Position numbers and translations under genes: made by a program. Of a DNA stretch of 64,000 nt, positions 17,144 through 17,484 are shown one piece after another (the first letter of the stretch is position 1; every line of letters begins with the position of its first letter). The DNA is from Escherichia coli (lineage in GTDB: Bacteria; Pseudomonadota; Gammaproteobacteria; Enterobacterales; Enterobacteriaceae), in NCBI RefSeq assembly GCF_003334255.1, contig NZ_QOWU01000017.1; one strand, written 5' to 3'. A model generated the notes under the pieces. The model was not told the origin of the DNA. It did no database searches and saw only the letters and a program-made list of their open reading frames with translations.

Positions 17144-17350
17144 ATATTCCACCAGCTATTTGTTAGTGAATAAAAGGTTGCCTGTAAAATTACAAAAACC
17201 TTACGCAGCGTCAAGCGGAATCGTGTCAATCATTGCGACAAATCAATCCTGTGCCTAAGCATTACGCGACTGACTCGCCTCACTCTTCCTTTGGGCTTGA
17301 GACCACATGGGGTCGGCGCCCCGAATTTTAAAGGGCAATTACGATAAAAA

Positions 17351-17366
17351 TGTGATTTTCATCACG
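17351..17366. promoter_or_regulatory. CRP-like binding site in the gapA/msrB divergent region
   Basis: TGTGA-ttttca-TCACG, 9 of 10 matches to the TGTGA-N6-TCACA consensus. Confidence 0.45.
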
Positions 17367-17484
17367 ATTTAGGTGCAGCCATTTCGTCGAGATCAAGTTT
17401 AGGACAAAATTTTGCCAGTTGGTGTTAATGTTTTGTTAGAATCAGTCACGTAATGTGAGCACGATTAAAGTGAGATGTGAGCAA

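Follow-up and report, generated by a model that had tools for sequence, protein, structure and literature searches.

The gapA-msrB spacer

The glycolysis gene gapA and the divergently transcribed msrB, a gene for methionine-sulfoxide repair, are separated by a spacer containing the pattern TGTGA-N6-TCACG, which raises the question of whether this is a genuine binding site for CRP (cAMP receptor protein), the regulator of sugar starvation in E. coli, and, if so, which of the two genes it serves. A preliminary description, made from the sequence alone, had proposed the site but left its target open; the published evidence points to promoter P3 of gapA. The window analysed here (the whole stretch of DNA, 64 kb in length) derives from the E. 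coli chromosome, and its positions 16100-17950 were matched in 5426 of 5426 complete E. coli genomes, where the annotation of gapA, msrB and yeaC bears out the gene pair named in that description. As the gapA start is at 17143 (minus strand) and that of msrB at 17485 (plus strand), the spacer covers positions 17144-17484, or 341 bp (Table 1). In the mechanically generated list of open reading frames msrB begins earlier, with a GTG at 17455, but this lies just 5 nt past the mapped transcription start at 17450 and the annotated ATG is therefore credible.

Table 1. Genes, promoters and regulatory sites discussed in the text, in window coordinates
Feature	Position	Strand	Details
CRP-matrix match	561-582 (exact pattern at 564)		yeaQ/yoaG; 10.8 bits; 16-mer in Shimada 2011 SELEX-chip table
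CRP-matrix match	9448-9469		12.2 bits
CRP-matrix match	13438-13459		mipA<>yeaG; 16.5 bits; 16-mer in Shimada 2011 SELEX-chip table
gapA coding sequence	16148-17143	-	ATG at 17143
Published gapA-side ArcA box	17164-17196		within the 17144-17245 block
gapA P1 (major, CRP-independent)	17179-17217	-	Olvera string; start A 17179
FNR ChIP-seq summit	~17221		within the 17144-17245 block
gapA P2 (sigma-32)	17296-17334	-	Olvera string; start 17296
gapA P3 core	17317-17330	-	-10 TAAAAT 17330 to 17325; start G 17317; Olvera string 17355 to 17317
CRP site, 22 bp	17348-17369		AAATGTGATTTTCATCACGATT; centre 17358.5
CRP core	17351-17366		TGTGATTTTCATCACG; TGTGA 17351-17355, TTTTCA, TCACG 17362-17366
gapA P4	17388-17426	-	Olvera string; start 17388; CRP site downstream
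msrB promoter	17422-17450	+	extended -10 TGTTAGAAT 17434-17442; start G 17450
ArcA box	17422-17442		GTGTTAATGTTTTGTTAGAAT; overlaps/encloses msrB extended -10; string from Park 2013 supplement
msrB coding sequence	17485-17898	+	ATG at 17485
CRP-matrix match	58093-58114		11.1 bits; RegulonDB chbB -83.5 site

Strength and identity of the CRP site

The pattern was found between the two genes as described, with 119 bp between its end and the msrB ATG and 208 bp from its start to the gapA ATG, the distances originally given. The core agrees with the two-fold symmetric 22-bp CRP consensus AAATGTGA-N6-TCACATTT at 9 of 10 positions, and its flank is A/T-rich. Exact copies of TGTGA-N6-TCACG number two in the 64-kb window compared to 0.10 expected, while sequences matching TGTGA-N6-TCACA at 9 of 10 positions number five compared to 1.75 expected. 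We scored the window with a symmetric 22-bp CRP matrix, trained on 57 RegulonDB sites that had also been recovered by SELEX and with gapA excluded. The site between gapA and msrB scored 19.8 bits, which ranks first in the window and exceeds 98% of the training sites; in 30 Markov-simulated sequences of 64 kb, nothing reached 19.8 bits. The site is thus far above chance. The 100 bp around it occur in each of the 5426 complete E. coli genomes, with at least 99% identity in 5349 of these.

The RegulonDB list reproduced in Table S4 of Shimada 2011 (PMC3105977) gives for gapA an activator site at -41.5 with the sequence gctgcacctaAATCGTGATGAAAATCACATTTttatcgtaat, the reverse complement of which is exactly window positions 17338-17379. 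The RegulonDB site (promoter gapAp3) and the window site share the same 42-nt sequence, position and promoter, with no differences, and more generally the sequence of this strain is identical to the K-12 strings used in the comparisons below. In MG1655 (U00096.2) the site corresponds to approximately position 1,860,580. In the same study (PMC3105977) Genomic SELEX with CRP yielded a clone of the msrB<>gapA spacer as well as a chip peak in it containing this 16-mer, and gapA/yeaA was among the top cross-species CRP predictions of PhyloScan 2007 (PMC1794230). The RegulonDB entry, identical in reverse complement, and the Genomic SELEX clone and chip peak establish that the proposed CRP site is genuine. 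It is the CRP operator catalogued for gapA P3, an ordinary feature that was already known. The main value of the case is as a control, in which a reader with access only to the sequence correctly found a genuine regulatory site and all parts of that reading could be matched to published maps.

Position of the site relative to the gapA promoters

Four gapA promoters are listed in Table 1 of Olvera 2009 (PMC2759082): P1 at -36, P2 (sigma-32) at -153, P3 (labelled 'Crp') at -174 and P4 at -245. Each of the four strings given there ends at the start site and occurs exactly once, without mismatch, in the window, so that the multiple gapA promoters mentioned in the preliminary description are all accounted for by this published map. 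From the start sites placed in this way (Table 1), the centre of the CRP site lies at -41.5 relative to P3, -62.5 relative to P2, +29.5 relative to P4 and -179.5 relative to P1. Olvera 2009 (PMC2759082), citing Charpentier & Branlant 1994, describes gapAP3 as one of four promoters and as 'regulated by Crp'.

We tested P3 for the features of a class II promoter, and found the CRP site centred at -41.5 from the mapped start, a proper -10 (TAAAAT, at -13 to -8) and no usable -35, the sequence in that position being ACATTT and lying within the CRP site. P3 thus lacks a -35 element because the CRP site takes its place. P1 has a -35 of TTGACG (17214 to 17209) and an extended -10, TGTAATTTT (17194 to 17186); its start at -36 was confirmed by 5'RACE, and in glucose it was the only gapA promoter detected by this method (Olvera 2009, PMC2759082). 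For P2 we assigned hexamers from the sigma-32 consensus, giving a -35-like CTTTAAA (17333 to 17327) and a -10 of CCCCATGT (17312 to 17305). The -10 of P3 overlaps this -35-like element of P2 (17325-17334, minus strand), with an invariant TTTAAAG block common to both; sigma-70 and sigma-32 polymerases would therefore compete beside one CRP site.

A simple scan for sigma-70 promoters and terminators across 17100-17520 returned one promoter-like match, inside the start of gapA, but did not recover any of the five mapped promoters. The failure to find P3 is expected of an activator-dependent promoter without a -35, and since all five were missed the sigma-70 consensus scan is uninformative in this spacer.

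Conservation in the Enterobacteriaceae

The comparative footprint covers the Enterobacteriaceae. A species-level genome scan with MsrB was used, from which we took the best 80 of 379 matches, all of them in this family and with MsrB identities of 80-100%; gapA lay divergently upstream in 77 of these 80 loci, which together with the window gave 78 spacers, 77 of them distinct. Spacer length among these best 80 of 379 matches ranged from 334 to 352 bp, with a mode of 341. As a neutral yardstick we used 52 four-fold degenerate sites in msrB, which had a mean identity of 0.45 and none of which reached 0.9. Across the 77 distinct spacers (best 80 of 379), mean identity to the window was 0.95 for TGTGA and 1.00 for TCAC, compared to 0.49 for the six nucleotides between them. 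The final G of the core had an identity of only 0.31, most genera carrying the consensus A at this position, and a perfect TGTGA-N6-TCACA was present in 43 of the 77 spacers (best 80 of 379).

The position of the site is equally constant. In 77 of 77 spacers (best 80 of 379) the best matrix match was located 214-216 bp from the start codon of gapA, with scores of 15.4-23.7 bits, and in 75 of 77 the distance from the P3 -10 block to the CRP centre was 32 bp. The half-sites are under purifying selection while the N6 between them drifts at the neutral rate, a classic signature of a functional CRP operator. The matrix scan identified no second CRP site in any of the 77 spacers (best 80 of 379).

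Conservation of the mapped promoters in the same 77 spacers (best 80 of 379) was 0.99-1.00 for the P1 region, 0.99 for the TTTAAAG block, approximately 0.92 for the P2 CCCCATGT block, 0.88 for the P4 block with its -10 (17396-17404) and 0.99 for the msrB promoter block GTGTTAATGTTTTGTTAGAAT.

Proposed action at P3

Taken together, we consider it very probable (approximately 0.92) that the site is the cAMP-CRP operator of gapA P3 and acts there by class II activation. At high cAMP levels, the 22-bp site centred on 17358.5 would be bound by a CRP dimer; the P3 start at 17317 lies 41.5 bp downstream of this centre, so that CRP takes the usual place of the -35 hexamer. From here it would bring RNA polymerase containing sigma-70 to the TAAAAT -10 through the contacts expected of a class II promoter, and P3 would thereby supplement the strong, CRP-independent output of P1 with catabolite-sensitive gapA transcripts that have a 174-nt leader. 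The sequence match, geometry, matrix strength and selection were computed here, while the literature (Olvera 2009, Shimada 2011 and Kim 2018) is the source for the binding of CRP and for the dependence of P3 on it, in the latter case through a secondary citation and RegulonDB.

The arrangement is familiar from other class II promoters with CRP at -41.5, namely galP1, mglB, glpT and malX, all of which likewise have a single CRP site, a recognisable -10 and no usable -35. Unlike these, P3 is one of four tandem promoters and minor beside the constitutive P1, and it shares part of its -10 with the -35 of a sigma-32 promoter. During growth on acetate, Cra repression of gapA has been found to outweigh activation by CRP, and the physiological contribution of P3 and CRP appears to be modest. 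The family-wide footprint, in which position is fixed and the central spacer free, nevertheless implies that CRP input has been kept by selection despite its small measured contribution in the laboratory. E. coli would gain from it catabolite-sensitive transcription of a gene otherwise run from a strong constitutive promoter.

Alternative and additional roles of the site

It may be that one CRP dimer serves both genes, with a weak class I-type effect on msrB exerted through the C-terminal domain of the polymerase alpha subunit, although we think this doubtful. The 5'UTR of msrB was reported to be 35 nt in length, beginning at G1 (Bos 2013), which places the start at 17450 and therefore the CRP centre at -91.5. 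This is within 1 bp of -92.5, one of the positions (near -61.5, -71.5, -82.5 or -92.5) on the helical face that class I activation would require. RegulonDB contains activator sites at -90.5 to -92.5 for glpABC, glpTQ, ansB, manXYZ, cdd and nupG, and a single site is used at -41.5 in one direction (glpT) and at -90.5 in the other (glpA), a geometry nearly copied by gapA/msrB (-41.5/-91.5) that also involves a palindromic site between divergent genes; malX/malI (-41.5/-43.5) likewise has one palindromic CRP site between divergent genes. The divergent partner of gapA is listed as a 'predicted target' by Shimada 2011 (PMC3105977). In 71 spacers 78 bp separate the CRP site from the msrB -10, and in 4 spacers 79 bp (best 80 of 379), but P4 and the ArcA box, which lie between them, would account for this constancy equally well. 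Our literature search for expression of msrB (yeaA) in crp or cya mutants found no CRP- or cAMP-dependent msrB expression, the published regulators of msrB being ArcA, FNR and RyhB, and experimental support at this locus is confined to the gapA side. In class I phasing studies, a lone CRP site near -92 is usually a weak activator and needs a proximal partner. glpA has its own proximal CRP site, whereas msrB has none, there being no second CRP site in the gapA/msrB spacer (second-best score 9.7 bits).

A further possibility is that the CRP site also modulates P2 and P4, giving class I-type help to the sigma-32 polymerase at P2 and acting as a roadblock or competitor at P4. We consider this unlikely, and less probable than a role at msrB. 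The geometry (-62.5 at P2, +29.5 at P4) and the invariant TTTAAAG block, in which the P3 -10 overlaps the -35-like element of P2, are compatible with such an effect, and Charpentier and Branlant reportedly observed an increase in sigma-32 transcription of gapA on starvation. However the site is 1 bp away from the canonical -61.5 at P2, the gapA start sites, having been mapped by primer extension, may err by approximately 1 nt, and polymerases at P3 and P2 would compete for the same DNA. A multi-purpose CRP site, which would couple not only gapA P3 but also msrB (-91.5) and/or the heat-shock promoter P2 (-62.5) to carbon status, is improbable to about the same degree as the shared use by gapA and msrB. 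If true, it would make the spacer a compact node integrating CRP, sigma-32, ArcA, FNR, Cra and RyhB.

By far the least probable reading is that the palindrome arose by chance and is without function, or that it belongs to a paralogue of CRP such as FNR. The core does share 8 of 10 positions with the FNR consensus TTGAT-N4-ATCAA, and a published FNR ChIP-seq peak lies in the same spacer; however matches at 8 of 10 positions are near chance frequency in the window (51 found compared to 37.5 expected), the summit of the peak is 137 bp from the CRP site, and the half-sites GTGA/TCAC are of the CRP type. We rejected FNR identity on these three grounds, and chance on the basis of half-site conservation with a free spacer in the 77 spacers (best 80 of 379) and recovery by SELEX with CRP.

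Other elements in the spacer and window

The interval 17144-17245, which comprises the gapA 5'UTR, P1 and approximately 30 bp upstream of the P1 -35, is approximately 100% identical across the 77 spacers (best 80 of 379), in contrast to the identity of 0.45 at four-fold sites of msrB. Both the gapA-side ArcA box and the FNR ChIP-seq summit fall within it (Table 1). A scan with the Cra consensus gave a 3-mismatch match at 17216-17229, a level of agreement whose frequency in the window is near chance (41 found compared to 26.9 expected), and a weak FNR-like match at 17233-17246 is not significant alone.

On the msrB side, the ArcA direct-repeat box was placed at -28 to -8 by Park 2013, in which msrB was 11.6-fold derepressed without ArcA. 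The msrB 5'UTR (17450-17484), which contains two RyhB pairing sites (Bos 2013), has a conservation of just 0.63 in the 77 spacers (best 80 of 379), far below that of the adjoining promoter. No RNA family was matched in an Rfam scan of 16900-17700 at E <= 1.

Elsewhere in the window the CRP matrix gave four lower-scoring matches (Table 1), of which those at mipA<>yeaG and yeaQ/yoaG have their 16-mers in the SELEX-chip table of Shimada 2011, while a third is the RegulonDB chbB site. Two of the 5426 E. coli matches to the gapA-msrB region are on records typed as plasmid and not as chromosome. The 1307-bp contig CALMKU010000237.1 belongs to a metagenome-assembled genome with the label 'uncultured Tolumonas sp.'; it has 4 base differences from window positions 16893-18199 and is probably mis-binned E. 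coli DNA.
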